A DNA stretch of 64,000 bases from Lachnospiraceae bacterium. GTDB taxonomy: Bacteria; Bacillota; Clostridia; Lachnospirales; Lachnospiraceae. Below, in pieces: positions 14,526 to 58,249 of this stretch (the first letter of the stretch is position 1; each line of letters opens with the position of its first letter). The notes beneath the pieces were generated by a model. That model had not been told where the DNA came from. It searched no databases and saw nothing but the letters and a program-made list of their open reading frames with translations. The position numbers and the translations under genes were made by a program. The stretch covers positions 9,255-73,254 of the forward strand of contig JAFWVX010000025.1 in the NCBI GenBank assembly GCA_017523785.1. Reading direction: 5' to 3'.

Positions 14526-14975
14526 ATGTTATTACCTAGTATTTTTGGAGAAAACTTACTTGACGATTTTATGGACTTTGGAAAAATGAGAGATTTTGAG
14601 GACATTGACAGAAAGTTGTATGGAAAGAGAGCATCAAGGGTTATGAAAACGGATGTTCGCGAACACGAGGGAAGTTACGAACTAGCTGTTGACCTTCCTG
14701 GATTTAAGAAAGATGAGATTAATATCACATTAAATGATGGCTACATTACTATTGCAGCAGCAAAAGGACTTGATAAGGACGAGAAAGACCATAAGGGCAG
14801 GATTATTCGCCAGGAGAGATATGCAGGTTCTATGCAAAGAAGTTTCTTTGTAGGTGACAATCTCAAAGAAGAAGACATTAAAGCAAAATTTGAAAATGGA
14901 CTTCTAAAACTCGACATACCAAAGGTTGATGCAAAGAAAATTCCAGAAAAGAAAACCATAATGATAGAAGGTTAA
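14526..14975 (+). CDS. Hsp20/alpha-crystallin small heat-shock protein
   Basis: Alpha-crystallin domain pattern (MKTDVRE..YELAVDLPGFKKDEI...GLLKLDIPK). AAGGAGG SD. Confidence 0.9.
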   Translation: MLLPSIFGENLLDDFMDFGKMRDFEDIDRKLYGKRASRVMKTDVREHEGSYELAVDLPGFKKDEINITLNDGYITIAAAKGLDKDEKDHKGRIIRQERYAGSMQRSFFVGDNLKEEDIKAKFENGLLKLDIPKVDAKKIPEKKTIMIEG

Positions 14976-15015: not shown

Positions 15016-15081
15016 AATTATTGAAAACTTGTAGAAAAAAAATCAATAAAATATGAAAAAGTTATATGATTATGAAAAAAT

Positions 15082-16077
15082 TTATAAATTATGAAAAAAT
15101 GTTAACAGACGTTTGTAATCATCAAGCGAAAGATTCTCCGCCCTTACATTTTCATCAAAGCCAAGTTCTAAAAGGGCATTAGATACAATATTTTTATCGT
15201 AACCAGCGTTGGTTAAAGAATTTAAAAGCTTTTTTCGCCTTTGAGCGAAAGAGGCTTTTATTAATTTGAAAAGTTGGTCGTAATCGGGCTCGTAAAACTC
15301 GCCCGTGCGAGGGCTCGCAGTGCTCGCCCCTACAGTTGTCGGGCTCGCAAACTTCGCCCCTACAGGTGCTGATCCCGCAGTGAGGTGCTTTTTGAAATGG
15401 ACGACTGCAGAGTCGACCTTTGGTTTAGGGAAGAAGCAATCTTTTGAGACTACCATTATCATTTTTGTGTCGGCAAAATAATTGCAAGCAAGAGTCAATA
15501 TGCCATAATCTCTACCGCCTGGAGTTGCTACAATTCTTTCTGCTACTTCTTTTTGGACCATTAGGGTCATTTCTGATACATATGGATTTTGTAGAAGAAT
15601 GTTGATAATGGGAGAGGTTATATAGTAGGGAAGATTTGCTACAACTTTGATATGAAAACCGGACTCGCAGTGCTCGCCCCTACGGGTCTCATTGGGCTTG
15701 CAGTGCTCATCCATATAATTGGCATTTGCCCCTACTTGGGACGACAAAATGTCGTCCCCTACATTTGAAAATTCATCTAGTATGGTTTGGAAGTCGAGCT
15801 CCATGAAATTGGCATTTATGATAGTGACATTTTCATATTCTTTGAGATTACTTTTGAGAAGTGGAATTAAACTCTTGTCGATTTCTACAGCGACAACATG
15901 GCGAGCCCTATCGCATAGACATCTGGTGAGAGCACCATTTCCAGGACCAATCTCAAGAACGAAATCATCTTTAGTGATTTTACTTTCATCAGCGATATCC
16001 TCAAGCAAAAATTCATCTATGATAAAATTTTGACCGAGCGAATGTTTAAATTTAAAATTTTTATTATTTGTTTTCAC
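15082..16077 (-). CDS. rsmA: 16S rRNA dimethyladenosine transferase RsmA/KsgA carrying two in-frame repeat insertions
   Basis: Motifs LGQNFIID, EIGPGNGALT, ANLPYYITSPII and FAQRRKKLLNSL. At 331 aa it is longer than usual because of two GC-rich insert blocks. Confidence 0.85.
   Translation of the reverse strand: MKTNNKNFKFKHSLGQNFIIDEFLLEDIADESKITKDDFVLEIGPGNGALTRCLCDRARHVVAVEIDKSLIPLLKSNLKEYENVTIINANFMELDFQTILDEFSNVGDDILSSQVGANANYMDEHCKPNETRRGEHCESGFHIKVVANLPYYITSPIINILLQNPYVSEMTLMVQKEVAERIVATPGGRDYGILTLACNYFADTKMIMVVSKDCFFPKPKVDSAVVHFKKHLTAGSAPVGAKFASPTTVGASTASPRTGEFYEPDYDQLFKLIKASFAQRRKKLLNSLTNAGYDKNIVSNALLELGFDENVRAENLSLDDYKRLLTFFHNL
15286..15370 (-). repeat. GC-rich hairpin repeat, 3 tandem copies inside rsmA
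   Basis: Plus strand reads GGGCTCGTAAAACTCGCCCGTGCGA / GGGCTCGCAGTGCTCGCCCCTACA / GGGCTCGCAAACTTCGCCCCTACA. These encode ...APVGAKFASPTTVGASTASPRTGEFYEP... Confidence 0.85.
15661..15763 (-). repeat. GC-rich hairpin repeat, 3 further copies inside rsmA
   Basis: GGACTCGCAGTGCTCGCCCCTACG; GGGCTTGCAGTGCTC..(insert CCATATAATTGG)..GCCCCTAC; GGGACGACAAAATGTCGTCCCCTACA (perfect 8-bp hairpin). These encode ...NVGDDILSSQVGANANYMDEHCKPNETRRGEHCES... Confidence 0.85.
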
Positions 16078-19421: not shown

Positions 19422-19487
19422 AAAATGTAAGGGCTATAATAAAATGTAGGGGCAACAATAAAATGTAGGGGCGAGCACTACGAGCCC
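19422..19487 (+). repeat. 19-nt tandem units ending in a full GC-rich hairpin repeat (inverse orientation)
   Basis: AAAATGTAAGGGCTATAAT / AAAATGTAGGGGCAACAAT / AAAATGTAGGGGCGAGCACTACGAGCCC. Confidence 0.8.
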
Positions 19488-31691: not shown

Positions 31692-32067
31692 AAGTTTTGT
31701 GATTTAAAATTTCATTTAGCAATTCTTCGTATGTCATTTCTGATGAGGCAACTTTCAAACCAATCTTAACTACTTCGTCATTTGTAAAAGTTGTCTTGAT
31801 TCCACACAACTCTAAAAATGTTAGCATGACAAACATTCCAATTCTTTTATTTCCATCTACAAAGGCATGATTTGAAATTAAACTATATCCAAGGCGAGCA
31901 GCCTTTTCTTCTTTTGTCTTATATAATTCTTCGCCATCAAAAGTTTGATAAACTTGTTGAACACTGCTGTCGAGAAGTTTTATATCTCTAATATTTGGTT
32001 CGCCACCAGTTTCTTCAATCAAAATCTGATGAAGCAAAAGGACTTTGTCGTTATCAATCTTAATCAT
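31666..32067 (-). CDS. doc: Doc (death-on-curing) Fic-fold toxin
   Basis: Fic/Doc motif HAFVDGNKR and an N-terminus [12 protein letters not shown]...IRD..LLDS. Confidence 0.85.
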
Positions 32068-32312
32068 TTCGCTAACTCCTCAAAAGCTTTGTGATATTTT
32101 TTCAAAACTCTTTTACTCGCAATCTGAAACATCTCTTCATCGGTGAGTTCAAATTTTTCATTTTGCTCACTGTCAATGCATTCTAAACAAAATGCAATCT
32201 TGTTATTTTTTAAAATGTAAACCTTTCCAAGTTCTTTGCATTTCCTTGCAACCTCGGAAAAGTTCTGGTTTGCCTTAGTTATAGATATTAAGTTTTCGTT
32301 TAACTCTGCCAT
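32064..32312 (-). CDS. Phd-like antitoxin of Doc
   Basis: AGGAG lies 5 nt before the ATG at 32312 (MAELNENLISITKANQNFSEV...). 4-nt overlap with doc. Confidence 0.7.
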   Translation of the reverse strand: MAELNENLISITKANQNFSEVARKCKELGKVYILKNNKIAFCLECIDSEQNEKFELTDEEMFQIASKRVLKKYHKAFEELAK

Positions 32313-32347
32313 ATGTCTCCTACAATATATCCTATAAATTAACCTAT

Positions 32348-32376
32348 ATTTTAACATTTAATTGCTTAAAAGTCAA
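32348..32376 (-). promoter_or_regulatory. Promoter of phd-doc
   Basis: On the minus strand: TTGACT, 17-nt spacer ending TGt, TAAAAT. Confidence 0.55.
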
Positions 32377-32382
32377 AAGTTA

Positions 32383-32465
32383 GCAAAACTTGTAAATTCT
32401 GACTCAAAAAACCACCCAAAACTTGTAAAATTTGACCATAAAAACCCCTTAAAACTTGTAAATAA
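32383..32465. repeat. 33-bp direct repeat, about 2.6 copies, with phased A-tracts
   Basis: The core AAAACTTGTAAA occurs at 32385, 32418 and 32451, exactly 33 bp apart. The first two copies extend to CAAAACTTGTAAA(T/A)T(C/T)TGAC..AAAAACC. Confidence 0.85.
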
Positions 32466-32556: not shown

Positions 32557-33513
32557 ATGGTTGATGAAAAAGCATTAAACCCTGAGTTAGAGGAATTGAA
32601 AAAACAAATTAATGTTTTAAAGGGAAAGGTTACAACACTCGAATCAGAAAAAAAGAAAATAGAAAATGAAGCTGAAGAAATAATTGGCAAGGCCATATAT
32701 GAAAAGAAAACTGGTCTTGAGAGGTCTTATGGTGAAGTTTTAAAAGAAGCTGAGCAGAGACTTAAGGCAAAAGAAAAAGAGAAGGCGGATGAGAGAAAGA
32801 AAAATTTAGATAGAGTTGTAAATGAAAACACAAAAGAGACAAAAGAAAATAATACTTATTTAAAAAATCACATTAAAAATATTTTAAAAGAAAATAAATT
32901 GCCAGCCTTTGTAAATAGTGATATATACATGGGCATATGGTACCCAGCAACAATAGCTGAAAAGGCAATAGGATTTTTTGCAGCAGTAGCAGTTTTAGCA
33001 ATTCCAACCATAATTGCATTTGGTGTATCAAAAGAAAATTTGATTAAAGCATTTCCAATTGCAATTTTTAGATACATTATCATTGCACTAATTTATCTTG
33101 GCGTGATTTTTATAGCAGGACTCATATGGCTTGCAGTAGAAAAGCTCACAAAGAAAAATGTTTCTGCCTTGAATGACATAAAAGAATTAAGAAAAAATAT
33201 TTCAGACAATGTGAAGAAGATAAAAAAGATTACAGAAGATACAAACAAAGAAATGACTGACGACAAATTTGATTACACAAAACTTGATAGAGAGATTGAG
33301 TCTTGCAAGTTGGAAGTAGAAAACTATAGAAAAAGAAAAGAGGATGCACTTAATCATTTTGAATCAGTGACAGTTGAAGAGATAAAAGAGAAAACTAAAA
33401 AAGAAATCGAAAAGAAAACTAAACCAATTGAAAATGAAATCGATACAGTAAAAAGTGAAATAGATCGCTTGCAAAAAGAGCACGACGAATTAAAACTCTC
33501 ATTAGCTGAATAA
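32557..33513 (+). CDS. Coiled-coil membrane protein, unknown function
   Basis: 318 aa: charged heptad-rich N- and C-terminal parts flank about three TM helices (aa ~125-200). GAGGTG SD. Confidence 0.65.
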   Translation: MVDEKALNPELEELKKQINVLKGKVTTLESEKKKIENEAEEIIGKAIYEKKTGLERSYGEVLKEAEQRLKAKEKEKADERKKNLDRVVNENTKETKENNTYLKNHIKNILKENKLPAFVNSDIYMGIWYPATIAEKAIGFFAAVAVLAIPTIIAFGVSKENLIKAFPIAIFRYIIIALIYLGVIFIAGLIWLAVEKLTKKNVSALNDIKELRKNISDNVKKIKKITEDTNKEMTDDKFDYTKLDREIESCKLEVENYRKRKEDALNHFESVTVEEIKEKTKKEIEKKTKPIENEIDTVKSEIDRLQKEHDELKLSLAE

Positions 33514-38689: not shown

Positions 38690-38763
38690 GGCCCGGTGGC
38701 TCAGATGGTTAGAGCGCTGCCCTGTCACGGCAGAGGTCAGGGGTTCGAGTCCCCTTCGGGTCG
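38690..38763 (+). tRNA. tRNA-Asp (GTC)
   Basis: Manual cloverleaf: acceptor GGCCCGG/TCGGGTC, anticodon loop CTGTCAC, T-loop TTCGAGT. CCA is not encoded. Confidence 0.85.
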
Positions 38764-38791
38764 CAGTGGGCGGATAATATCCGCCCCTACA
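38764..38791 (+). repeat. GC-rich hairpin repeat copy between tRNA-Asp and tRNA-Tyr
   Basis: ...CAGTGGGCGGATAATATCCGCCCCTACA. Hairpin GGGCGGA/TCCGCCC plus the family tail CCCCTACA. The shared TCGCAGTG head overlaps the tRNA-Asp 3' end. Confidence 0.7.
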
Positions 38792-38798
38792 ATTTTAT

Positions 38799-38880
38799 GG
38801 ATGGGTTCCCGAGTGGCCAAAGGGGGCAGACTGTAAATCTGTTAGCATCGCTTTCGGTGGTTCGAATCCACCCCCATCCA
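38799..38880 (+). tRNA. tRNA-Tyr (GTA)
   Basis: Acceptor GGATGGG/CCCATCC, anticodon loop CTGTAAA, long variable arm, T-loop TTCGAAT. CCA is not encoded. Confidence 0.85.
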
Positions 38881-38889
38881 AGGTTTTTC

Positions 38890-38962
38890 GGGGTGTTAGC
38901 TCAGCTGGGAGAGCATCTGCCTTACAAGCAGGGGGTCATAGGTTCGAGCCCTATACGCCCCA
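38890..38962 (+). tRNA. tRNA-Val (TAC)
   Basis: Acceptor GGGGTGT/ACGCCCC, anticodon loop CTTACAA, T-loop TTCGAGC. CCA is not encoded. Confidence 0.85.
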
Positions 38963-38986
38963 TTTTTCTAAAAAAACCCATATTAT

Positions 38987-39060
<74 letters not shown>

Positions 39061-39063
39061 CGC

Positions 39064-39092: not shown

Positions 39093-39416
39093 GTTATGTA
39101 ATAATTTAAATATTAATAATACATAATATAAAAATATGAATAATAATAAAAATAATGTATACCACAATACAACATATAGTAGTTTTATGTCAAATAAAAC
39201 ACACCTTGTAGGGTTTTCTCATTAAAAGAAATTTAATAAAATCGCCAAAAAGTGGCAAAAAATCAATAAAATAAGTATTAAGATTTTATTAAGATTACTT
39301 AAGACTTATTGAGAAAATAAGGGCTTTTTAGTAAAATTATTATGCATAAGTTTAATAGGAGTGGAGGGCCTATTATATTATTTTAGTGTGCAATTTTATA
39401 TTGCAGAGGAAAGAAT

Positions 39417-42400
39417 ATGAAAGAGCAATTTAAAAAACTCATATCTATTATTTTAATAGTCGCAATGACTATTACTAATAATGGTTTATTTGTTTTGGCT
39501 GACAGTGTTGATAATATTGTCGACCAGAGTTTGAGTACTGCTCAAGAAACTCCAAACTATTATTACTATGAGGAAACAACGACAGTTGAAGATTATCAAG
39601 CATACCTTGAGTCAGAAAATCCAGGTGTCTATGACGAAGAAGTAGAGACAAAGGACTATGCTGACAAAAGTGAAGAGGATGAGATTGAATCATCTGAGAC
39701 TTTTGATGTGGAAGAAACCAGTAAAGAAGAATCAGATGAAGTAGAGGATACAAGTGAATCTACAGAGAACGAAGATGAGGAGGAAACAACTACTGTTCGT
39801 GAGGAAACAGAGAAAGAGACAGTAAATGAAAAAGGGGAAGCTGCAACAGAATCTAACGCTGAAGAAATAATAGAGCAAGATGAGGAAGAAGAGATTGCAA
39901 CAAGTTCAGAAATAGAAACTGAAGAGGTGATAGAAGAGAATATAGCAACTGAGTCAGAAATTTTACCTGAAGAAGAAAACAATGTTGAAAACCTTGCGAC
40001 AGAATCAGATATTAACAAAGTAGTTGCGACAGAGTCTGAGTTAGAAGAAAATATTTCTACAAATTCTGAAGCAATGATTGAAAAAGAAATTATCGTTGCT
40101 ACAGTTTCAAAAATATCTTGGAAGGTTAAAAAAGTTTTGATTGCGACATTTGCATCGATAAATGTTAAAGCAAGCGAGACTGAGAAAGAAAGAGTGGCAA
40201 GACTTGCAACTTATGCAAATGTTATCATCGTAAATGATAAAGGTGATGAAAAGATATTTAAAGTAAATCTCAAGTGGAAATTATTTAAGAAATATGATGT
40301 AAACGCAAGATCAGATAAGCAAGAAGCTCCTATACCAAAAGAAGAGTGGAGAAAAACTCTTAAGGTAGATGAGTTCATAAAAGATCAAGAAGAAGTAGTG
40401 GTTTCAACTAGAAATATCGCATTAGTTGAAGAGAGAGTTAAAGAAGAAAATGCAAAATATGAAGATAAAGAATTCGTAGTTAAGTTCCAAAACGATAGTG
40501 AAACTCAAGAAACTACAGTAAACCCAGCTGTAGAAGAAAGCAATGAAAACCCTGCTGAAAATATAGAAACAATAGAAACTACAGTAGTTATTGATGAGAC
40601 TGAAGGTGAGACTTATGAAGAAACTATTGAGACAATTATAGAGACAAGTATTGAAGAGACAAGTAATGAGATTATTGAAGAAGCAACTAAGGAAAATGAA
40701 ATTGATGAACCTACTGTTGCTGGATTTAATAATTCTGAAGACATCGCAAGTAGCAGCGATGTAGAAGAAAGTAAAGAAGTAGAGACAGAAGAAACAGAAA
40801 CTGAAGAAGTAGAAACAGTTGAGTCACAAGAAGAAAGTGAATCAGTAGATCAAAATGAAGAAGTAGAAATTCAAGAAGAACTTGCAACAGCATCTACATT
40901 AGTTGAAGAAGAAATCTCAAATGTTGATACTATGACAACAAATGGTGAAGAAATTTCTGATGAGACAATTGACTATTATGATTTACAAACAATTTATCTC
41001 TATAAAGTTGATGTACCTGCACTCGGTGATGAGATAATAGATATTATCAACAAAGAAAATTCTAATGTTGAAGAGAAAGATGAGACTGAAGAGTTGCTTG
41101 AAGAAAAACCAGAAGGAATAATCGGCGGACTCATGAAACTCTTTGGACTTGGTTCAACTGAAAGTAATGAACAAAATGATGTAGAAGAAACTAAGGAAGA
41201 AGAATTAGAAACATATTTAGAAAATGCAGAGGTTGATATCATTGATGAATCAAGGCTAGAGCCAATGGTTGCAGAGTTTGATGCACATCTTTTAGGAAGT
41301 GGTGCAACTCACGAGCAACATCAGATTTCAGTTTTTGTAAATGGCACAGTTCTGACACCAGACAATATTTTCAATTCTGTAATCGGTGGCGATGAATCAG
41401 ATATGTTAGATTTATCTGAAAATAATAGAAGAATTAAAGCAACAGGGTCAAACATATTCATTGCGGGAACTTATTATTTGCCAAGCGATATAAAAATATC
41501 AAATCAGTGGATAGTTGAAAAAAATAATACTTTGACACTTTGCTTAAATGGGCATGATGTGAAATTTGCAACAGCTGGTTGTGTAAAAGGTGAAGGAAGA
41601 GTGGTTGTATGTAACTGTGGAGGAAGCGCAACTATTTCAACTGATGGACCTACATATAATTGGCATGACAAGTGGTATGCAAGTACATCTGAGACATATA
41701 CTAAGTGGAATGAGCATTCGTTAATAGCAGGAGATGAAGTTGGAGTATATGCAAATGATAATAATATAACATTTTCAAATGTTGTAATTAAGAATCAGTA
41801 TAACGGAAGAAAAGCCGCAGCACAGATGGAAAACACGGAAATAGATGAAGCAGAGTTATCAGGTGATGGTTCTATTCTTTGGGGTAAAAAAGAAATACAA
41901 GTTTATGGAGCAAAATTCGCAAATAATAGAGCAACTAGATCAAATGGTGTTGCTGTAAATGCACAACTTGGAAAGATGACTCTTGAAGACTGCTCGTTTG
42001 TTGATAATAGAAATTTAACAAATAGAGGTGGAGCAGTAGCATTTAACCCTAAAGCAACTATTATAAATAATTGTGTGTTTAAAGATAATATTTCATTTAC
42101 TAATGGTGGGGCACTTTTTGGCAGGTCATATACAAATTCTGTTGAAAGTGTTGAAATTGGAACAAAGATTTCAAAGAGTACATTTGAAAATAATGTAGCA
42201 CTGATAGATGGCGGAGCTATATTTATGGACTATCTTTGCGAAAAAGGAGTGACAATAGAGGGAACGGAAGCAGATAAGGTAGTATTTAAAAATAATTATG
42301 CCGGTGCATCAGGTGGTGCAATATCAGTTAGACATATGAGATCGGTAGATGGACAAGAAGAAAATGCATACTCATATGAAGATCCTACAAGTAGGGGAAG

Positions 42401-45400
42401 GCTTTTAAATATTAATTATGCAGTATTTGAAGGAAATGAAGCAAAGGCACTAATTATAAATAAAAATACAGGAGCCATATCAGAAAATCCCCTTTCTTTA
42501 AAGGAAAATTTTGGTGGTGCAATAAATTTAAATTCTCAGACGATAGTATATAGAACATTCCCTACAGACAGTCCAGTAAAAGAAGTAAATATTAAAAATA
42601 GCTCGTTTAAGAATAATATAGCTAAAGGATTTAAACTTGATATTAAATCAAAAGATATAACAGGAAACTTTACAGGTGAGACATTAGCGACATACTATGC
42701 AGGAAATGCAGGTGGTGCAATTTATGCAAACAAGTTAAATAAGATAAACATAGAAGATTCAGAATTTACAGATAATAAATCTATGACAGGAGCAAACCTT
42801 TGTATAAAAGAAGCTTCGGTAAGTTTTATTGGTGGAAAATTATTAAATGGTAAAGCATATAATAATAGTTATAGTGCATCAGAGTTTTATAAGAGAGTAG
42901 TATCACCTGGCGGTGGTGCAGCATATCTTATGAACGATGCCCATCTTTCTATATCAAAAGAAACTAAGATAGAAACAAATGAAAATGCATTTTATCTTGA
43001 TGGAGGCTCTATTGATTTAGGGGCTGGAACTGTAACAGGAAATACAGGAGAATACTTAATCGGATATGCAAACTATAAGTCAAACAGAATATTGTTTAGT
43101 GGTGTAGATATTAAAGATCATACATTTAATGAGATGAGAAAGGACTATACTTCTACAAGATCTGACGCTGCAACAGGTAAGAGAAATTTTAAAGATGGAT
43201 ATTATCAGACATCTTATATTTCATTTAAAGGAACAAACCTCATAACAAATAATAAAAGAAACTTCTACACAAAAACTGGAACAACATACACAAGTAAGAA
43301 TGAAGAAGCAAATATTGTTATGACAGCATCTGATTCTAATTTACAAATGGATTTGAGCAAATATTTATTTGATGTTCCATTCACAGACCAAGATGTAAGT
43401 CAGGGAATTGGACTTTATTATGACTTTGACCCTGACCCAAATAAAGATCAGATTACCGCATATGATAGATGGACTTATGAAAATGTAAAAGTTATAGACG
43501 AGGGTGGTCTTTGGACAAACTACTTTGAGATAGATAACTCAAGTAAAGGTGAGTGGGCAGAAAACTGGAAGTTTTATATAGAAAAGAATGAGATAAGAAT
43601 GAGTCCGCACATTGTGCAGGTTAAGTTTGACTCCTATATAGAAAATGTTCCAAGAATAAAACCACAGTTCTACAATTTTAGAAAAGGTGGTGGAACGACA
43701 TTAAAAATTGCAACCCCAACAGAGATTGTAAGAAGAGACATTCATACACCAGGAAAGACTTTGCTGGGATTCCTTGGAGTAGACAAATCAAAAGATGTCG
43801 AAAATACAAAATATGATATATGGGATTTTGATAAATGTGAAATTGATCCATCAAGAACTGATGGTGATGTAATAGAGATAATCTTAGTATATACAGATGA
43901 TACAATAAAAATAAAACCATGTGGATGTGAAAATGGTAAAGCTTGTGCTCATGAAGGAGTGAGCATTAATCACTCTGATAGAGGAATTGGAACAAGTGAA
44001 GAAGAAAATAGATATTTAAATTACATTGAAGTAGCAACATACCCTCAACTTGCTTATAAATATAAGGGGAGAAAGACTCAGTATGTATTGAGTAAAGACC
44101 TTAGACTTACTGGAAATCAAGCAAAAGATTATATTGATGGTGGTATGGTTCTTAACCTAAATGGAAAAACTCTTACATATGATACAAGAGAGAGTAACGA
44201 TTCACACATCTTAGATACTACAGGAACAGATGTTATGCATACTGCAAATGACTCAAAGATTATGATCTGTGGTATAGCAACACCAGGAGCAGTAGAAAGA
44301 GGTAAGATAGTAGCTAATGGAACACATAAAGGAGCATTTATATATAGCAATACTGATGTATATCTAAGCTACCTTGACATTATGAATGTATCAGCGGTGG
44401 ATGGTTCTGATAAAGCATTTATACAAAGCGCAGATACAAATATCAATACTTATGTGAATACAAAAGAAGTAACATTTACTAACATAAATTTAAAATCAGA
44501 TTTAATTAATGCCGGTTCAAGAGTTGTGTTATCAGACACAAAGATTTCAAATGCTGAATTAGATGGTAGTGTTGTAAAACTTCGTGCTGAAGCAAACAAG
44601 GAAACCGCTTTTGAATTATTAAACACAGATATTACAGGACTTACCAAAGCAAATGCACTTCTTGGTTCGGATTTAACTAGTCCAACAGGAACAAAAGTTA
44701 GAATATCTACATCAAATATTACTAACAGTGTATTTGAAACTCAGTTAATTAAATTGGATGATTCTTCAACAGGTGCTAACTCTGAATTAAAACTTCAAGG
44801 CGAAGTAAAGATAAATGGAAACAAATTAAATTCTGGTTCAGTATTTATTTCAAATGCAGCAACAAATGGAAGCGACGTATTTGGTGTAAGCGTAGATGAC
44901 AGAATTGAAATTAACAACAACACTCTTCCACATAGCGATGGAGTAACACTTCTTACACTTTACCAGAAGTCAGTTACATTTAAGGGTGATGTATCACTCA
45001 CTGGAAATAAGACTGTTGCAAGTGGTAGAGCAACAGAAAAAGTTAGTGCTGTTAAAGCAGGAAATAATACAAGTGTGTTACTTGATGAAGTTGCTATTAG
45101 AGTAACTGATAACTTAACAAAGTATGAGTGGTATGCTGAAAATACAGACGGAACCACACAGACATTTGAGAAAGCAATATTTACTCAGGTTGCTGGAACA
45201 AAACTTAAGGCTTCAGATTCTATAATAAAGATTAGACTTGCTGTAAGTGACGAGGATGAGTCACAAAAGATTTATGAAAATTGGTCAGCAAATAATATTA
45301 TAGGAGAAAAGGAAGCAGAGGCTACATTCTTAAGAGATGATTCTTATTCTGAAGATGAAGTTGAAGATATCTACAAGAAAGGAAAAGATGAAGAAACTTC

Positions 45401-48400
45401 TGATATCTATATGGGATCAACTTATGTTGCAGTTAGATATAGACTATATAATTATAAGGCAAATGTAGATGAGAGGCTAGATGAATCAGCAGGTTATACA
45501 CAAGCAGCAATACAAAGAGTAGAACCTGATGTATATACTTTACTTGATACACCACAATATAAGTTTGATTTTTCAAGAACTTCAGTTATGTGGGAAGCAT
45601 TTGCATACAGAAAATCTGATGGAACTTATGATTATTCTGATGAAAGATTATACCCAGAGAAGACAACACATATAGGAATTAGATCAACAAAGAGTGTATT
45701 GGTATCAGGATATATTTATAACTATAACAATAAGCGACATGTGCATGAAGGAAATATAGAGTTATGGACTGAGGCAAGAAATGAAGGACATTTACAAGCA
45801 ACTAACTCATTTGTCTTCTTGCATAATGACTTAGAAATTACTAGACCACTTAAGTATAAACCAGAGAAGACTTACCACCTATGTTTAAATGGACATAAAC
45901 TCATAGTTAATAATAGTATAGAATGGTTTAAGTCAAGCACTTGTAAATTGATAATTTGTGATTGCCAGAAGACAGGAAGCATTGTCCAAAATAGTGGCGA
46001 AATTGCAAGTAAGTTTATAAATATAAGTGGTGGAGAAATTGATATTAGCGATATCACATTTGGACCATTTAAGAATGTAAATAATACAGAGTTTGTAAAT
46101 GTAGCAGAGACTGTTAAAGTAAACATTGATAATGTAGTGGTAAAAGAAATCAATATGGATAACTTTGTAAAGACTGATAATGCATTTATAAATATTAAGA
46201 CAAATAATTTAGCAAGTATAAGTAATGTGACATTTAGATCAAATAAGATGTTATCTAATGATAAAACCAATGCAATATTCACAGTAGATAACAAGAGCGG
46301 TGGAAGCATTAACATTGATGGTATAAGTTTAGAGAGTAATGAAGTAAACGCTGACACATCTAAAAATATAAATGGATCAGGATATGTAGTTAAAGTTAAT
46401 GGATATGATAGAGTTACACTCAACTCGCCAACATTAAAATCCAATAAGGTTGTTTTAGGTGCCCCTATACAGATAAACGGTAATAGTTCAGCAACATCAT
46501 ACAATAAAATTCTTACCATGACGAATGTTACATTTGAAGAAAACCAAAAGAATTTTGTAAATAGTATGAAACTTGAAGACCAAGCAAAAGATGGAATATC
46601 TGCTAACTATGCAAGTATTAATTTCAATAACATAATCATAAATGGCGGATCTTTTAAAGGAAATAGATTCAATTCAAATGCAGCAACTTTAGCAGGCGAC
46701 GATGGTGCAGTAATTGATTTAACAAACTATGATGCAAATCTTACAGTTAAAGATGTAATGTTTGATGGAACTGGAACAACTGCAAATGATAATGTATTTG
46801 GTATGTTGATTCTTGATAAAGGCGATGACTTGTTTGAGAATGTAACAATTACAAATTACAATATGGGATCAACTGCTTATATGCTTCTTGCAAAAGGAAC
46901 TTCAAATAGTCCTGCTGGAACATATGTGGGTAGAACAACATTTAGAGGAACAACAAAGTTTACAAACAACAAAGCTAAATCAATGGTCAGAGTTGAGAAT
47001 GAAAGAAACGATGTCAACAATGATTATGAAGGATTATTGTTGATTGATGGAACAACATTTACTAACAATACCGCAAATAATCCAAAAGTAACTGGTCTTA
47101 GCGGATTGATAGAAATTGACTCAAATACTATAGTAGTAGCAAGTGGAGCTAATATAGCTAAGACAACAGGAATTGCAGTCTATATCGCTACAAGTGAGTT
47201 TAGAATGTTTAACTCAGAGATTAGTGGCGGATTAGGAAACGATGCGGCTGTATATGTAAAAGATGCTGGAAGACTTGTCCTTGGTGATAAAGTTATAGTA
47301 AAAGATAATAAGATAAATATTTATCTTGACGGCGATGGCAGCATCAATGCTCAAATAAAAGCAATGGATGGACATCCAATATCAGCAACATCAGAAATTT
47401 ATATTACGGTTCCAGACATAGAATATAATTTCTTTAATCAATGGGGAAATAATTATATAAAGAATTATAATTATCATCAAGGCAACACATATGCATATTT
47501 ACCAAATGATTTATTTAAACTTGATGCTGCAATAGCAAGCAACAGAAAGATATATATTAAAGGTGATATTGCTTCAGGAAACCAAGAGTTGTGGGTATCA
47601 TCTAACCAAGCAACATATGAATATGCAACACTTATATTCTTTGATAAAGATATAAAAGGACCTAAAGAGATAGCAAGACAGTATATAAAGATTGGACAAA
47701 AGACAAAACTTGATAGAGTGCAAGTTGATTATATCTCAACATTAAGTCAAGTGTGGATGACAGAAGCAAATGGTGATAAACCAGAAGAACAAACTATGTG
47801 GAGACTTTACAGCAATGGACAATATCACGACTTTGAAGTAGTTAATTATGAAGCAGGAAAAACATATTATGCATATTTAACAAAGAAACATGTTCATAAG
47901 ATTTGTGGACCTGATTCACTTGTGCCTTGTGGTCCAAATCACGCAGATGGAATAGCTCACACAGTCGACTATGAGTTCTTACAAGTAGGAACTAATGATA
48001 ATATAATAATTGAAGCTTCAAGAAGTAACTATATAGGACTTTCAAATAATTTGACTATTAATCAAGCAGCACTTAACTCGTTAAGTAATAGAGAAATAGT
48101 ATTCTGTATAAATGGATATACTTTGACATTTGAAAAAGATGCAATGCTTAATACAAGTCACAGTTTTGCACTTATTAACTGTGAAAGCACAGGTGTTGTA
48201 ACAGTCAATGAAAATGAAAAAACAACCAACTCACTTATTAGTGCAAGTGGGGCGGGAAATACATTTAGTTTATATAATATTAATTTCCATAATTTTGAGA
48301 CAGAAGCATCTGTAATAAAAGTTCAAAATGTAAAAACAGTAAGTGAGAATGTAAAGTTTACAGAGATTGAATCAACAGCACCTAATGGAATATATGATAT

Positions 48401-51400
48401 ACAAAGTGGAACTGTCTATGTTGAGAACTTAGCATTTACCGACAACATAGCATCTGGCTCTTCTCTTCTAGATTTGAGATTTGGAAGCTTTACAGCTGGA
48501 AAGATTGGAAATATAAATATTAACAATAACACTTATACCAACAAACTTTTATCACTTAGTGGCACAGGAAATATGGATTCAATCGTAGTTAACAACAATA
48601 CTATGATAGAAGGTGGAGGAGCAGATTCTTATGGTGCAATCTATGTTGCAAATGGTGCCAATATAACATATGCACATGATGCAGTTATATCAGCAAATGA
48701 TTCATCCATAAATGAAGAGTCAAAAGGAGGAGCACTTACAGTATACGGAAGACTTAACTTTAATGGTAAGATGACTCTTGAAGATAATAAGGCAGGTCTT
48801 GGAGGTGCAATCTATGTAGATAGCACAGGTTCGCTCCATGTGACAGGTGAAGCATACTTTAGAGAAAATGAAGCAAAGGTGGGAGCAGCAATTTATGCTA
48901 AGAACTGGTCAAATATAAATTTCTCAAGTGTAACATATGATGGAAATCGAGCAAAGACTCATGGTGTAGTTGCATTTGGAGGAAATTATAATAGAGGAAT
49001 AGCAACATTTAAGAATCATACAAGAAGTTCAAGAGATCTAATTTATAATATTAATGACAACGGCACTGATAGCTTTACGATAGATAAAGAAACATTGTTC
49101 GTTGATAATACTCTTGCAGATAGCATTATATACTTAAGAAATGTATCAAGTGCAAATGTTGAAATTTCATATTTAAGCACTGGTAATTCTGTAAAGAGTT
49201 TTGTGGAGATTGCAACAAGTTCAATCACTATAGATAATTCAGTTATTACTGAAAACACTTTCAACGATTCGGCATTTATATTTAATAATCCAATTACTGC
49301 AAGAGTTGCAAGTATATCTGTATATGAAAACAAGATTACAAATGCAGTATTAAGTGTTAGCGGAGGAGCTGTAGAGATAGGCAATAGAATGACGTTTAGA
49401 GACAATGTCCCAAGACTAGGAAAGACAAAAGAATTGTATGTAAGCGGAAAAGGTGGATACTTTAAAGCAACTGAAAAGATAACTATGGGTAAGAAGTATT
49501 TGTTCTCTGCTTACACAAATGGAATAAAGGTATTTGAGAAGTGGAATGCAACTTATATTGATAATTATGATAATCCTCAAAGCAAAGAACCAGGACGTTA
49601 TATGGTTACACCTGAAAACTCAGATACAATCAAACTTTCAGATGATGACAAGGAAAGAGGATTAGGATTTTATAAAGTAGGAAGCACCGATAATCAAGAT
49701 ATATACATTGGTAAAGAAGGAATTGACTTTATACAACTTAGATTTATTGGCCCAGAAAAAGATAATGCAGTGTTTGCTTCGCAAAATCTTGAGAAGGGAA
49801 AAGAGACTAAACTTGATAAGGTTGATACTTTAGAATGTGATTTAGCAAAACAAAAATGGGTAGCGACAATGAGTGATGGAACAGCTAAGACATTGATATT
49901 TACTTCAACTCAAACTGCTTCATCATCAGATACAATCAATATACTTTATACAAGACCTCACTTACATAAGATTTGTGGAATAACAAGAAATGAAACTTGC
50001 AACCATACAAATGGAGCAAGTCATACTGAAATAGAATATCAAATAGTGGCTAATGCAGCAGAGTTTGCAAGCACTACAAATCAATATGTATATATTAAAG
50101 ATAATATAACAGTTGATTCTACAATTAACCTTGCAAGTGGAATAATAGGCATTTGTTTAAATGGGTATACATTAAAGATAACAGGAGGAGCAAACTCATT
50201 ATTCAATACAAATAATGAGCTTAGTATTTGTAATTGTAAGCCAAAAGGCGGTATCACAACAGGTGATGAAGTTCAGGAAGCTGCAATTATTAACTACACA
50301 GGAACAAGTTTAGCAGTTTATAATGTTGACTTCTTCGGAATTAATACAAATAAGTCAGTAATTAAACTACCAAATACAGGAACAACAACTCTATACACTG
50401 AGAACTTAAGATTTAGAAACAATAAAGATTTAGGTTATGACACAGTAATAGATAGTGTTGGAAATAATACAATTTACATTAATGATGTGACATTTGCAGA
50501 TAATAAAAATGAAAGCGACAACAATATGCTTGATATAGATAGCGGATATATTGTAAGCACATTGTCATTTATCAATAATGATACACACTCAAGATTAATG
50601 TGGTTCTGCAATAGTAATCTCGTGAATATAAAGTCATTAATTGTAAAGAACAATAAAATAACTGACGATAGTATGCTTGCATATGTTGATAGTGGTGCAA
50701 AGGTAAATGTTGCTAACGATGTGCTATTTGAAAACAACATAGTTGATGGAGAAGCACTCCTTGCAATGGATACAAGAATAGAGTTTGCAGTGCTTGGCAC
50801 AATGTCGTTTATCAACAATGTAGCAAAGAAGCACGCTGCTATGGAAATTGAAGATAACACAACTATCTCAGCAAGAAACATGTTATTTGACGGAAATAAG
50901 AATTTAGAAGCAAATAATGCAATTGTTGAATGGTCAGAATCAACACTTAGACTTGATAATGTCGTATTTAAGAATCATACAAATGCAAGTGACATACTTC
51001 TTGGAAATGTAGATAATAATGGAACTAGTAAGATTTATTTGTCGAGTCCATCATTTATAAACAACAAGGGAATTGCAATAAAACTTGACGGTATAGAAGA
51101 TGGTTATATAACTGGAATAAAACTTACTAAAGATTTAAATAATAACTTCACTAATGTATTAAATATTAGAAACAGCTCAGTTTCAATTACTGATTTTGTA
51201 GTAAAAGATAATAATTTAGTAAATAGTGCAGTAGCGGTTAGCGAATCAGATAAAGTAGAACTTAAAGACATAGAGATTAACAACAACTCTATAACAACTA
51301 GTGGAGCATCAGCACTATCATTAAATGGTAATGGAAGTATCCTTAAAGTAAAAGGCTTAATAAGTGTTGACGGCAATACTAGCGACATTTCATTAAGTGA

Positions 51401-54400
51401 TAATTCATACCTAAAAGCAAGCGGAATGGTAAGCGGAAAGTCTAAGATGAGTTTTGCTATAAATGGAACAACACAAAAAGTGTTTGAAGGTTGGGATAAG
51501 AATCATATAGAGACTTTTGGAATGACTGCTTCTAAGTCAACTCCAAAGAGATATACATATACACCAGAGAATTCAGGCTTATTTGCAGCTAAGTCACCAA
51601 GTGGATATGCAATTTATAAAGGTGGAACAGGTGATAATTTAAGCATATATGCAGGAAATAGAGATTCATATAGTGTCCTTTCATTTATCTATGTGGATGA
51701 GGATTATGTAGAGTCAACTCTTGAGACACAGAATGTCATAAAGGGAGCAACAGCAATTGATACTCTTCTTGATGTAGTAGATACTTTTGAATATGAGTTA
51801 GAGCATCAAACTTGGTATGCTCCAAATCCATCAACAGGTGCACATGATGTAAAATGGGAGTTTAAGAATGATGTAATTTCAAATATCAATAACGATGCAC
51901 AAATTAAATATGTGAGAAAACATATTCATAGAGTATGTGGAACTAAATACGAAGATACTTGTGACCACAAAGAGACAAATGTTAGACATGCAAATACAGT
52001 TATCTATGTAGATGCTACAAGTTCAAATCCAACATATTGGCCACGTAGTGCAGAGTATATAAATCTTTTAAATGATATAGAGTTTAATAATAGACTCGAT
52101 TTAGAGAATCTTAAAGGTATATGTTTGAACGGACATAAGCTCATTGTTGGAAATATGCATAACAACTTTATGTCAATTAGCTCTGAACTAAATATCTGTG
52201 ACTGCAAACATAAAAAGACTACAAACGGAGCTATAACGATAAAGAACGGAGTGACATTACAAGATAGTTTAATCTATGTTGGGTCAGGCGGAACATTCAA
52301 TGCATACAATATCAACTTTGAAAATATAACTTTGAAAGATTATGTTGACTTTACTACTACATATACATTTGCAATAGAGAATTCAAATAATGGTACAGTA
52401 TATCTTGAAAGACCAGTATTTAGAGGACCAACTGAAGCTGGTGAAAATGGACTATTAAAGAATAGAGGTGGTGCAAGTCAGTTTAAAGTTATTGAGGCAT
52501 TGATTACAGATGTTACTCTTAACAGCCCATCACCATTACTTACACTTACAGGTAGCTTTAATATATCGACTATATCAGTAATTAAGAATTATGGTTATAC
52601 TGTTCCACTTATAAAAGTGACAGATGATGTTTCAGTAGGAAGCTTTGTGCTATCAAATAACTCAGGCTCAACTGGTCAAGGTCTTATATCTGTAGATGAA
52701 GGTGTAACATTAACACTTACTAATAATAATACATTTGAAGGAAATGAGTCACAAGGTGGAGGAGTTATAAAGGTTGCTGGAACTCTTGTAGCTGAAAAAG
52801 ATTTGATATTTAAAGACAATGTGACAGTAAAAGGAAGCGGAAATGGTGGAGCTCTTTATGTCAATGCAACTGGTAAAGTAATAACAAAAGGAAAGACTAA
52901 ATTTATAGGCAATGAGGCAATGCATGGTTCTGCAATTTATGCTGAGAATATAACTGAAGAAGCACTTAAAAATTTGAATGAACCTTATTTTGAAGCAAAC
53001 ACAGCAATAACAAGTGGTGTTGTATATTGGTCAGGAGAACTTAGACTTTCTACTCCAACGATAGTTAAACATGAACCATATAATAAGACAACTCTTAAAG
53101 GTGTAAGAAGTGGTATATTCATAAATGAAAAATCTGGAGATAAGTTAATACTTGAAAATCCAGTGTTTGCAGACAACAATATAGTAGGAAATGATGATAG
53201 TGCATCAGCAATAAAACTACATGGTGTTGTTGATGGAAGTAGAGTTGTAGGCTTTGATGAAAAATCTAAGAATAACTCTATGAATGACTTTATCTTCTTA
53301 GAAGATAGTGATATGGAGATCAGTGGTGAAATCAACAGGACATCATTAAATAATAATTTTAAAGAGACTGTAATTAGCATTAAGAATGCTGGAAAAGTAA
53401 TGCTTAAAGATTTGTCTATTGAAGAGCAGACAGTAGGAAATGCAGCTCTTTACATATCAGGTGCACCGGTATCTATAGATGGCAAGATAAGAGTTACTTC
53501 TAATAGTACTGCAGAACGTATAGATGCTAAGAATATTTACTTAACTGATGAGTTAGCATATTTTATAGCATCAGGAAAAGAAGGTGCTGTATCTTACATT
53601 GATGAATCGTCAATTATGGACATTTCAACTTCTGGACAAAAAGAGGCAAAGGTGTTTGAAGGATGGAATGAGTATAATTTTGAGCATTATGACAAACCAT
53701 ATGTTGATAGCAGCACGAATAAATATATGTATACTCCAGAGAACTCAGGTATATTCGCAGTGGGCAACGACTTAGAGGAAAAAGGATATGAGTTCTTTAA
53801 GAAAGGTTATGCTGGAGATGGTGATGGAAATGGAGACATTTATCTTGGCACAGATGAAAAATTTGTAAAACTTAAATACTATAATGATGTAGAAGAAGTT
53901 GAAGACTATGAAGAGAAAGATGGCGACAAGGAATATTATGGCAATCAGAACATAGCAAAAGATATTCCAACAAAACTTGATAAGGTAGATTCTCAAGAGT
54001 ATGAGATCGAGAAGCAAGAGTGGTATGTAGGATATCAAAGTAAGGATACTTATGACCACCTTGAGAAGTTCAACCCAGCTAATCCTCAACCAACGATTGC
54101 AGGAGTAAATGGTGTTGTAGAAGAGTTTTCAACAAACCAAGAGATTAAATATCATCAGTTCCATATTCATAAAATATGTGGATTAAAATTAAGTGAAGAA
54201 TGTGAACATGAAGGACATGCGGACCATGTTGGAACAGTAGAGTTTAATGATGTAAATACTATAGCTGAACTTGAGGCAGCAACTGGATATGCAGTGCTAG
54301 TAAAAGACTTAGATATTGCAAATATGCAAAGAGCACTAAGATTAAATCCTGGTCTCACAGGCATTTGTCTAAATGGCCATACAATAATGGGTGATGGTAG

Positions 54401-58118: not shown

Positions 58119-58249
58119 CATTAATATATAGATTATATGTTAACGAATGCAGGCGAAGCTCTTCGCTTCGCTTGTAGGGTTGCCATATAATTGGCAAAAA
58201 AATTTAATAAAGGCAAGAATTAGAGAGGGAATTCTTCAGGGGAAAAATT

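Follow-up and report, generated by a model that had tools for sequence, protein, structure and literature searches.

Six copies of a short GC-rich repeat lie in frame within the rsmA/ksgA gene of a Lachnospiraceae bacterium, in a 64,000-nt stretch of DNA that is referred to below as the window (GCA_017523785.1, contig JAFWVX010000025.1, positions 9,255–73,254 of the forward strand). With a probability of roughly four in five, these repeats are GTAG-tagged repetitive extragenic palindromes (REPs) of a system of REPs and REP-associated tyrosine transposases (RAYTs), a "REPtron", in a low-GC rumen Lachnospiraceae/Clostridia clade. REPs are perfect or imperfect palindromes of 20–50 nt that can fold as single-stranded DNA, and those of the GTAG superfamily are defined by a tetranucleotide, GT[AG]G, at the base of the stem-loop, which is short and GC-rich (PMC3733652, PMC8266576).

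Repeat units within rsmA

The host open reading frame (ORF) begins with GTG and encodes 331 amino acids (aa), the product matching Pfam RrnaAD with E=1.6e-62. The window is AT-rich (27–38% GC), and two GC-rich blocks are conspicuous within rsmA. They hold the six copies of a 23–42 nt element, all in one orientation and all in frame. The six in-frame copies in a 331-aa product reported by the first-pass annotation of this DNA were borne out: six units could be mapped and the frame was kept throughout. On the coding (minus) strand of rsmA a unit opens with GTAG, and a hairpin footed by GGG...CCC comes next:

15082..16077, minus strand: rsmA/ksgA, 16S rRNA (A1518/A1519) dimethyltransferase, host of the six in-frame REP units
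15738..15762, minus strand: unit a, perfect-hairpin subfamily, GTAG-GGGACGAC-ATTTT-GTCGTCCC, read as VGDDILSS
15694..15735, minus strand: unit b, 42-nt composite, read as VGANANYMDEHCKP
15661..15683, minus strand: unit c, main type, GTAG-GGGCGAGC-ACT-GCGAGTCC, in the second open frame, RRGEHCES
15341..15363, minus strand: unit d, GTAG-GGGCGAAG-TTT-GCGAGCCC, read as VGAKFASP
15311..15333, minus strand: unit e, exact main-type consensus, GTAG-GGGCGAGC-ACT-GCGAGCCC, VGASTASP, profile score 27.1 bits
15286..15308, minus strand: unit f, old degenerate copy with the tag GCAC, GCAC-GGGCGAGT-TTT-ACGAGCCC, RTGEFYEP

The GTAG tag, with GGG following, was present in five of the six rsmA units and in both intergenic units of the window, while in unit f it has mutated to GCAC. 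The DNA of unit a folds at -10.2 kcal/mol (z -4.5), and its subfamily recurred in loci L037, L042, L071, L085, L102 and L104 of other genomes. Unit b is made up of GTAGGGGC, 19 nt (AAATGCCAATTATATGGAT) and the 3' half of a main-type REP (GAGCACTGCAAGCCC), the last being the part recognised by the REP profile. The consensus GGGCTCGCAGTGCTCGCCCCTACA occurred exactly at 15311–15334, with two mismatches at 15661–15684 and with one at 19464–19487, and had no match in 100 shuffled sequences; its core CGCCCCTAC, at one mismatch or fewer, was found nine times in the window against 1.4 expected. Two sense frames are used by the rsmA units, a VGASTASP-type and a RGEHCEP-type, and the third would start with the stop codon TAG. 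The tryptic peptides predicted to span the inserts are FASPTTVGASTASPR, TGEFYEPDYDQLFK and GEHCESGFHIK.

At the 3' end of rsmA, between this gene and a convergent Hsp20-like gene (14526–14975), an AT-rich 19-nt tandem repeat of 3.4 copies (AAAAAATTTATAAATTATG) at 15037–15100 covers the rsmA stop codon.

Placement of the inserts in the RsmA fold

The nearest solved relative of the product was Bacillus subtilis KsgA (6IFS, 2.2e-53), to which it aligned in three blocks, interrupted precisely at both inserts:

RsmA residues 7–109: 6IFS residues 19–121
RsmA residues 142–227: 6IFS residues 121–207
RsmA residues 269–324: 6IFS residues 224–283

Compared with B. subtilis KsgA, the first insert adds approximately 33 aa before IKVVANLPYY, in the loop ahead of strand beta4, which bears NLPY, and the second adds approximately 25 aa before LFKLIKASFAQRRK, in the linker to the C-terminal domain. 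These values agree with the first-pass estimates of about 30 aa before ANLPYY and about 25 aa before FAQRRK. The corresponding sites of B. subtilis KsgA are the short loop between a helix and beta4 and the interdomain linker, so that the comparison with orthologues and the mapping on a KsgA structure, both proposed as a check by the first-pass annotation, place the inserts in two loops. From the topology of class-I methyltransferases, the first loop would lie at the end of beta4 opposite to the catalytic NLPY loop. An AlphaFold2 model computed from the alignment had a predicted local distance difference test (pLDDT) score of 70–90 for most of the RsmA fold, and a score below 50 without secondary structure at residues 111–140 and 232–263; the REP-encoded segments are accordingly predicted to be disordered.

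Variation of rsmA among relatives

RsmA proteins of 34 relatives were aligned, and five relatives were compared at the DNA level and for dN/dS. The core was 68–99% identical, while the total length ranged from 273 to 369 aa, the length differences being restricted to the same two loops in all aligned relatives. The words VGDDILSS, RRGEHCEP, VGASTASP, RTGECLQSP and TGELCEP recurred in these loops. Most relatives had a counterpart of unit f, RTGEFHEP or RTGEFHET. The unit was also kept in P0033, which at 273 aa is the shortest allele and still has one degenerate relic in each loop. At the DNA level, each of the differences from the five relatives was a whole REP-like unit, so the presence/absence polymorphism between strains that the first-pass annotation proposed to look for does exist. 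The unit content, number and frame differed between alleles at a dS of only 0.07–0.22, indicating a fast turnover; the window allele and P0002, for example, differed by two units at a dS of 0.155. The distant RsmA proteins P0094 and P0112 and B. subtilis KsgA had short, unrelated loops.

The gene itself is under purifying selection. The dN/dS of its core was 0.06–0.23, i.e., about 0.1, against the five relatives, and the SAM (S-adenosylmethionine)-binding and NLPY motifs, and with them the catalytic motifs GPGNGALT, NLPYY and FAQRRK, were invariant among the relatives, indicating a functional rsmA. Its description as an "essential-type" gene was overstated, since the universally conserved rsmA/ksgA is dispensable in Escherichia coli. 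Since metagenome assemblies are the source of all the data, and assembly errors are known to arise at repeats, the inserts might have been produced by misassembly at repeats in a metagenome-assembled genome (MAG), or they might sit in a decaying rsmA; one of the RAYT copies described below is indeed frameshifted. Such an artefact is hardly credible, however, in view of an independent ENA assembly (P0001) with a 331-aa RsmA, 99% identical and containing the same inserts, and of dozens of independent assemblies in which the open frame is kept and the arrays are different, besides the low dN/dS and the invariant catalytic motifs. None of the three observations that the first-pass annotation had named as contrary to its claim was made, namely equally long loops of unrelated nucleotide sequence in close relatives, lack of recurrence elsewhere and a pseudogene.

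Dispersal and structure of the repeat family

A scan of one genome per prokaryotic species with the 23-mer GTAGGGGCGAGCNNNNCGAGCCC gave at least 100 stretches, nearly all of them from rumen Lachnospiraceae or Clostridia MAGs. Among the matches listed, nine low-GC species-level MAGs had 4–18 stretches each. The suspected dispersed family was also recovered with a structural definition of the unit, i.e., a GTAG with a GGG-footed hairpin behind it, whose stem was no shorter than 6 bp and had no more than two mismatches: 192 units were found in 725 kb (the low-GC loci and the window) against two in shuffled sequence, the tag being present by construction. The high-GC matches L008, L024, L066, L074 and L099 were left out of this census, because long ORFs are no evidence of coding there. 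Although 86% of the DNA was ORF, 137 of the 192 units were intergenic, the density being about 17-fold higher outside genes.

The same 23-mer was also present in MAGs labelled as Acidaminococcales (L017), Acetivibrionales (L085) and "Bacillota Lab288P1bin55", which suggests either horizontal spread or binning errors.

The dominant subfamily, GGGCGAGC-AYT-GCGAGCCC, has a conserved tandem G.A/A.G interruption in a 4+2 bp stem, and its unit e variant was the commonest elsewhere (57 of the 192 units in the structural census). Other subfamilies, starting with GGGACGAC, GGGCGGAT or GGGCGGCA, have a perfect stem. Compensatory changes were seen at stem pairs 4, 7 and 8 (CG/TA, GC/AT/CG), while pairs 5 and 6 were either GA+AG or GC+GC. 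In nearest-neighbour calculations on two of the perfect-stem subfamilies the units folded at about -10 kcal/mol with z from -3.3 to -4.5. The support for a main-type hairpin is the covariation and the perfect-stem subfamilies, not the energy. The first-pass annotation had described the element as a hairpin, which holds for the perfect unit a, while the main unit is an interrupted palindrome. This conserved irregularity recalls, by analogy, the obligatory bulge of the E. coli group 2 REPs.

The Rfam scan of the whole window returned four tRNAs only and thus placed the repeat in none of the described RNA families, and a scan of viral contigs for the 23-mer gave a single match, in a giant-virus MAG and at chance level, thus giving no sign of phage carriage.

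Four other kinds of element were considered and rejected. Miniature inverted-repeat transposable elements measure 70–300 bp and have terminal inverted repeats of 15–30 bp and target-site duplications; the present units are single hairpins of 23–42 nt, with neither of these features when filled and empty sites were compared. An intein or intron does not agree with units of 23 nt that lack splicing signatures and use two reading frames. A CRISPR array would have spacers and a regular period, both absent, and a simple contingency repeat would not be dispersed over unrelated genes and spacers.

Putative RAYT genes in a REPtron arrangement

Small genes flanked by REPs were found in three different MAGs, with the upstream REPs at a distance of 10–30 nt:

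L069 6352–6785 (MAG RUG816): RAYT-like gene, one REP 10 nt ahead of it and, directly downstream, two in inverted orientation
L034 5480–5917: RAYT-like gene (146 aa), one REP 15 nt ahead of it
L090 2560–2994: RAYT-like gene, one REP ahead of it and, directly downstream, three in inverted orientation

Their products of 142–146 aa matched Pfam Y1_Tnp (1.1e-5), and the only significant solved relative was the E. coli TnpAREP (4ER8, 1.9e-6), with the aligned pairs PNHLHII/PEHMHCI, LWQKNYYERVIRD/IWQPRFWEHAIRN and YIAENP/YIYINP. The HUH motif, the W-Q...E-R...R residues and the catalytic Tyr (Y-x-x-x-NP) all aligned to 4ER8, and H77, H79, W113, Q114, Y134, N138 and P139 were invariant in 14 homologues. 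In the E. coli TnpAREP, the W-Q...E-[HR]...R residues contact the GTAG (PMC6006769). The NCBIfam model REP_Tyr_transpos (NF047646) scored 61.0 and 65.4 bits (E 1e-16 to 5e-18) and the IS200 model 18–21 bits. Clusters of homologues, with 1–6 contigs per cluster, were named "REP element-mobilizing transposase RayT" by JGI. Judged by their sequences, these are putative RAYT/TnpAREP-type HUH/Y1 genes in a REPtron arrangement.

A further homologue, with 31% identity, was found in the Acidaminococcales MAG (L017 1782–2135, minus strand; JAVBME010000034.1). It contains an in-frame antisense copy of the 23-mer REP (peptide GSQCSPL) between the HUH and the Tyr motifs, with REP-like sequence also close to its 5' end.

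The same RsmA data might be explained without any transposase, by slippage or unequal recombination in a GC-rich loop segment, the similarity elsewhere being due to gene conversion or convergent composition. The rsmA of P0028, in which a 27-nt in-frame head-to-tail array encodes RTGECLQSP three times, would fit such local instability, and so would the mostly direct orientation of neighbouring units and the lack of target-site duplications or clean empty junctions among the rsmA alleles. Nevertheless, it is an improbable explanation, given that identical 23-mers are present in at least 100 unrelated stretches from at least nine genomes, in unrelated genes and spacers, that REPs flank the RAYT genes in inverted orientation, and that the spacings of 25, 27, 30 and 52 nt within rsmA do not make one tandem period. 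Slippage probably contributes to the turnover of the arrays, but it cannot explain their origin or dispersal.

Intragenic copies and strand orientation

A unit was counted as intragenic when located at least 10 codons inside an open frame of at least 100–120 codons, a length that chance would hardly produce in DNA of such GC content. By this measure 49 of the 192 units (about 25%) were intragenic and six overlapped gene ends. The V-G-A frame was used by 29 of the intragenic units, the R-G-E frame by 14 and an antisense frame by six, i.e., 43 of the 49 were in sense. Pfam-confirmed hosts included MnmA, RNase HII, GrpE, argininosuccinate lyase, QueA, a tyrosine recombinase, glycogen branching enzyme, a MiaB-like radical-SAM enzyme and sugar-nucleotide enzymes. 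MnmA carried a REP at different sites in L001 and L027, each lacking the insert of the other. A protein-database search with a concatemer of the REP-encoded peptides returned nothing at E<=1e-3, the query being too short for 5.8 billion sequences.

In L004 (1758–3051, plus strand), an ORF of 431 codons contains about six antisense REP-derived units, five of which encode ...GSQCSPL(R/Q)MSD(K/S)K...; antisense frames are also tolerated when units expand in tandem.

The strong sense bias might indicate that the rsmA arrays are kept for a function, and so might the REP-derived sequence, which all relatives examined have at these two sites, even those with only 58% overall identity. The arrays could serve as mRNA hairpins pausing or attenuating translation at domain boundaries, or as Cys- and acid-rich loop peptides altering the interaction with the 30S subunit. 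In other bacteria, REPs do stabilise RNA or act as terminators. A selected role is nonetheless very unlikely, since strains at a dS of 0.07–0.22 vary in the content, number and frame of the units, the same peptides are found in many unrelated enzymes, the encoded segments are predicted to be disordered, the outgroup proteins P0094 and P0112 and B. subtilis KsgA have no such inserts, and a general leading-strand bias accounts equally well for the prevalence of sense copies. Most likely, the REP-encoded peptides are a neutral, disordered loop filler.

Outside genes, the GTAG strand was the sense strand in 57 of 70 unidirectional cases. For intragenic and intergenic units together it was the leading strand by GC skew in about 80% of cases, which puts the active strand on the lagging-strand template. 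A bias toward the lagging-strand template is what the replication-coupled single-strand transposition of IS200/IS605 elements yields. With nearly every gene running in the direction of replication, the effects of replication and transcription are not separable here. Only four intragenic units were located in lagging-strand genes, two of them in the window rsmA; the cumulative skew places this gene on the lagging strand, and yet it has six sense units, which makes it an exception. Its six units would fit the speculative and unlikely idea that in transcribed genes the REP/RAYT system targets the sense (non-template) strand, or survives preferentially there, and not only the lagging-strand template at replication forks, although an ordinary replication-strand bias fits the data equally well. 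If it were true, single-stranded DNA exposed by transcription would be the entry point for REPs, and REP arrays would keep supplying housekeeping proteins with in-frame variation of their loops.

Proposed origin of the arrays

If the repeats are REPs of a REPtron, RAYT would recognise the folded single strand bearing GTAG, cut and rejoin it, and in this way seed copies at new sites or beside existing REPs. Selection would retain only those copies that in sum lengthen the gene by a multiple of three, are free of stops and lie in permissive surface loops. Once a REP was present in a loop, further units would be attracted or templated alongside, and slippage or recombination between direct units would then expand, shrink or swap the array. 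Such turnover would explain the RsmA lengths of 273–369 aa among close strains.

Several points weigh against this interpretation. Neither the rsmA alleles nor the spacer at 19.4 kb, when compared with its counterpart in L054, had a clean junction between filled and empty sites or a target-site signature, the junctions at both places being blurred by deletions and divergence; we infer the mobility of the units, and even for E. coli the way in which REPs disseminate has not been solved (PMC8266576). The 64-kb window has no RAYT gene. The scores of the RAYT-like proteins are below the curated equivalog cut-off of NF047646 (80 bits), and the L069 gene is split into ORFs of 70 and 73 aa by a frameshift in an A-run just ahead of the HUH motif, which makes it either a decaying copy or one with a sequencing error. 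In nearest-neighbour calculations the main-type hairpin was no more stable than its shuffles (-4.2 kcal/mol, z -0.5). Units neighbouring within 120 nt were direct in 36 cases and inverted in 14, all six rsmA units being direct; this prevalence of singletons and direct arrays is unlike the inverted doublets (bacterial interspersed mosaic elements, BIMEs, or REP doublets forming hairpins, REPINs) that are thought to be mobile in Proteobacteria. Inverted pairing is typical of REPs; it is not strictly required in the families of Di Nocera et al. (PMC3733652). The census was biased as well: its loci were picked for an exact copy, ORFs served as a proxy for genes, and its stretches were the listed matches. 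Finally, the insert peptides are a predicted translation of an open frame.

Other copies and features in the window

In total, nine REP units were recognised in the window. A REP profile built from related copies found main-type units only in rsmA and at 19465–19487. The intergenic copies described by the first-pass annotation were confirmed at 19465–19487, together with two 5' fragments, and at 38790–38768:

19427..19487, plus strand: full REP (19465–19487) and two 5' fragments, GTAAGGGC at 19427 and GTAGGGGC at 19446, intergenic
38768..38790, minus strand: perfect-hairpin REP, GTAG-GGGCGGAT-ATT-ATCCGCCC, antisense to tRNAs
58174..58197, plus strand: AT-rich-stem GTAG hairpin of uncertain membership, GTAGGG-TTGCCA-TATAAT-TGGCAA, just past a giant ORF

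The first of these is located in a divergent spacer upstream of a phosphoglucose-isomerase-like gene. A 19-nt tandem repeat of 2.7 copies (19422–19472), composed of a REP 5' end and an A-rich filler (AAAATGTAGGGGCAACAAT), runs into the REP at 19465; its repeats are truncated 5' REP fragments in tandem and possibly abortive copies. The orthologous spacer of L054, which is syntenic with the window at 14.3–23.1 kb with 76–88% identity, has no REP and represents an empty site.

The second occupies nearly all of the 33-nt spacer between tRNA-Asp and tRNA-Tyr, and its subfamily was also present in L003, L042, L051 and L096. The spacer belongs to a cluster of four tRNAs, Asp-GTC, Tyr-GTA, Val-TAC and Met-CAT (38690–39061), and the antisense REP within it might affect the processing of the tRNA precursor.

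Of the two degenerate copies that had been suspected, the one near 39204 was rejected: it is a bare GTAGGG without a GGG-footed hairpin, at chance level. Seven non-REP GTAGGG hexamers were present on both strands of the window, approximately the number expected by chance from a rough base-composition estimate. The other, near 58171, is doubtful: it shares the 13-mer CCATATAATTGGC (58182–58194) with unit b, while no further copy of the hairpin 58174–58197 was found in 105 loci.

The giant ORF preceding this hairpin (39417–58118, plus strand; 6233 aa) had no Pfam match in its first 3000 aa, and in the remainder only choline-binding repeats at the extreme C-terminus (approximately residues 6187–6226). 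It is probably a cell-wall-anchored giant surface protein with a fold not recognised by Pfam. Downstream of it, at 58450–60400, there are tandem repeats of 9, 15, 18 and 60 nt, rich in GAA, GAG and ACT codons; the plus strand would encode a Glu-, Lys- and Thr-rich sequence, and the ORF listing shows minus-strand ORFs only. Another tandem repeat, of 33 nt with 2.4 copies and 83% matches, lies at 32384–32463 between the ORFs 32064–32357 (minus) and 32557–33513 (plus).

Comparison with known systems

The closest likeness is to the GTAG REPs and REPtrons, such as the E. coli REP/TnpAREP and the families GTAG-1 to GTAG-24 (Di Nocera et al., 2013, PMC3733652), with which the present family shares the 5' GTAG at the foot of a stem-loop, dispersal, several subfamilies per genome and a Y1/HUH gene flanked by inverted REPs. 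With the group 2 REPs it also has in common a conserved stem irregularity, here in the dominant subfamily. The TnpAREP cleaves single-stranded REP with GTAG as a guide, and group 2 requires the bulge (PMC8266576). GTAG REPs were known from Proteobacteria, Cyanobacteria, Chloroflexi and the Planctomycetes–Verrucomicrobia–Chlamydiae group, with Firmicutes unlisted in 2013 (PMC3733652). In contrast to them, the present host is a Firmicute with about 32% GC, the units are mostly single or in direct arrays instead of BIME-type inverted pairs, about 25% of them are intragenic in the sample, and the RAYT is short (142–146 aa) and scores below the NCBIfam equivalog cut-off.

In-frame REPs have been documented in housekeeping genes at about 70 sites of Opitutus terrae, including QueA, and also in Thauera, Pseudomonas putida and Rickettsia conorii, and were argued to sit in linkers or loops (PMC3733652); they also occur inside tnpAREP genes themselves (PMC6006769). 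The first-pass statement that such behaviour is rare and not described is therefore valid for the host group only and not in general, given these records from other phyla (PMC3733652, PMC6006769); literature searches found no report of such REPs in Lachnospiraceae, Clostridia or Firmicutes. The O. terrae families GTAG-17, -18 and -19 (PMC3733652, Additional file 3) resemble the present one in their in-frame singles and groups, which add 7–50 aa to housekeeping proteins (PMC3733652), and in the QueA host common to both. Peptides starting with V-G or V-A occur in O. terrae and here because the GTA of the tag is read as Val. The sequences are unrelated, however, and the host there is a GC-rich member of Verrucomicrobia; alleles were not compared at the population level in that study, while here the same two loops vary between near-identical strains.

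The Rickettsia palindromic elements (RPEs), to which the first-pass annotation had likened the repeats, are similar in behaviour: both are palindromic repeats that conserved proteins tolerate in frame, presumably in surface loops. RPE-1 is a long palindrome of about 100–150 bp. The family is another one: the present units, mostly of 23–25 nt and unrelated in sequence, are GTAG REPs with a cognate RAYT-type gene in related MAGs, whereas RPE-4 and RPE-6 are short CGTC-tagged REPs and the CGTC REPs have no associated transposase (PMC3733652). The RPE hosts are obligate intracellular alphaproteobacteria, unlike the present one.

Among the transposases, TnpAREP subclass 2.4/RAYT group 4 (Quentin et al., 2018, PMC6006769), which that paper calls abundant in Cyanobacteria and Bacteroidetes, shares a hairpin foot of three G-C pairs, the lack of a C-terminal extension and an in-frame REP inside the RAYT gene, here in L017 and suggested also by homologues of 180–193 aa. 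By these shared features the Lachnospiraceae RAYTs are candidate members of the subclass, from which they differ in lacking the variable insertion region. The REPINs of Pseudomonas fluorescens are comparable as non-autonomous REP-derived populations tied to a single-copy RAYT; they are inverted doublets and almost entirely extragenic (PMC6006769), whereas here inverted neighbours are a minority and many copies are coding. What appears to be new is the host group, the high intragenic share in the sample, the preference for direct arrays over inverted pairs and the hypervariability of two loops at the strain level.

Implications for REP biology in rumen Lachnospiraceae

Most of the work on REPs has been done with Proteobacteria, i.e., with GC-rich, almost exclusively extragenic elements in GC-rich genomes. 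A GC-rich REP family in genomes with 32% GC makes copies and relics easy to see, and rsmA and mnmA, with different sets of units in strains a few percent apart, document naturally how REPs are gained, lost and duplicated, and how they decay, at single sites. Stretches such as VGASTASP or RGEHCEP inflate and diversify the protein lengths in rumen MAG catalogues, and in annotation they can be mistaken for domain differences or assembly errors. With many related, independently assembled genomes and a small RAYT of about 145 aa, these bacteria offer a favourable natural system for REP dynamics.

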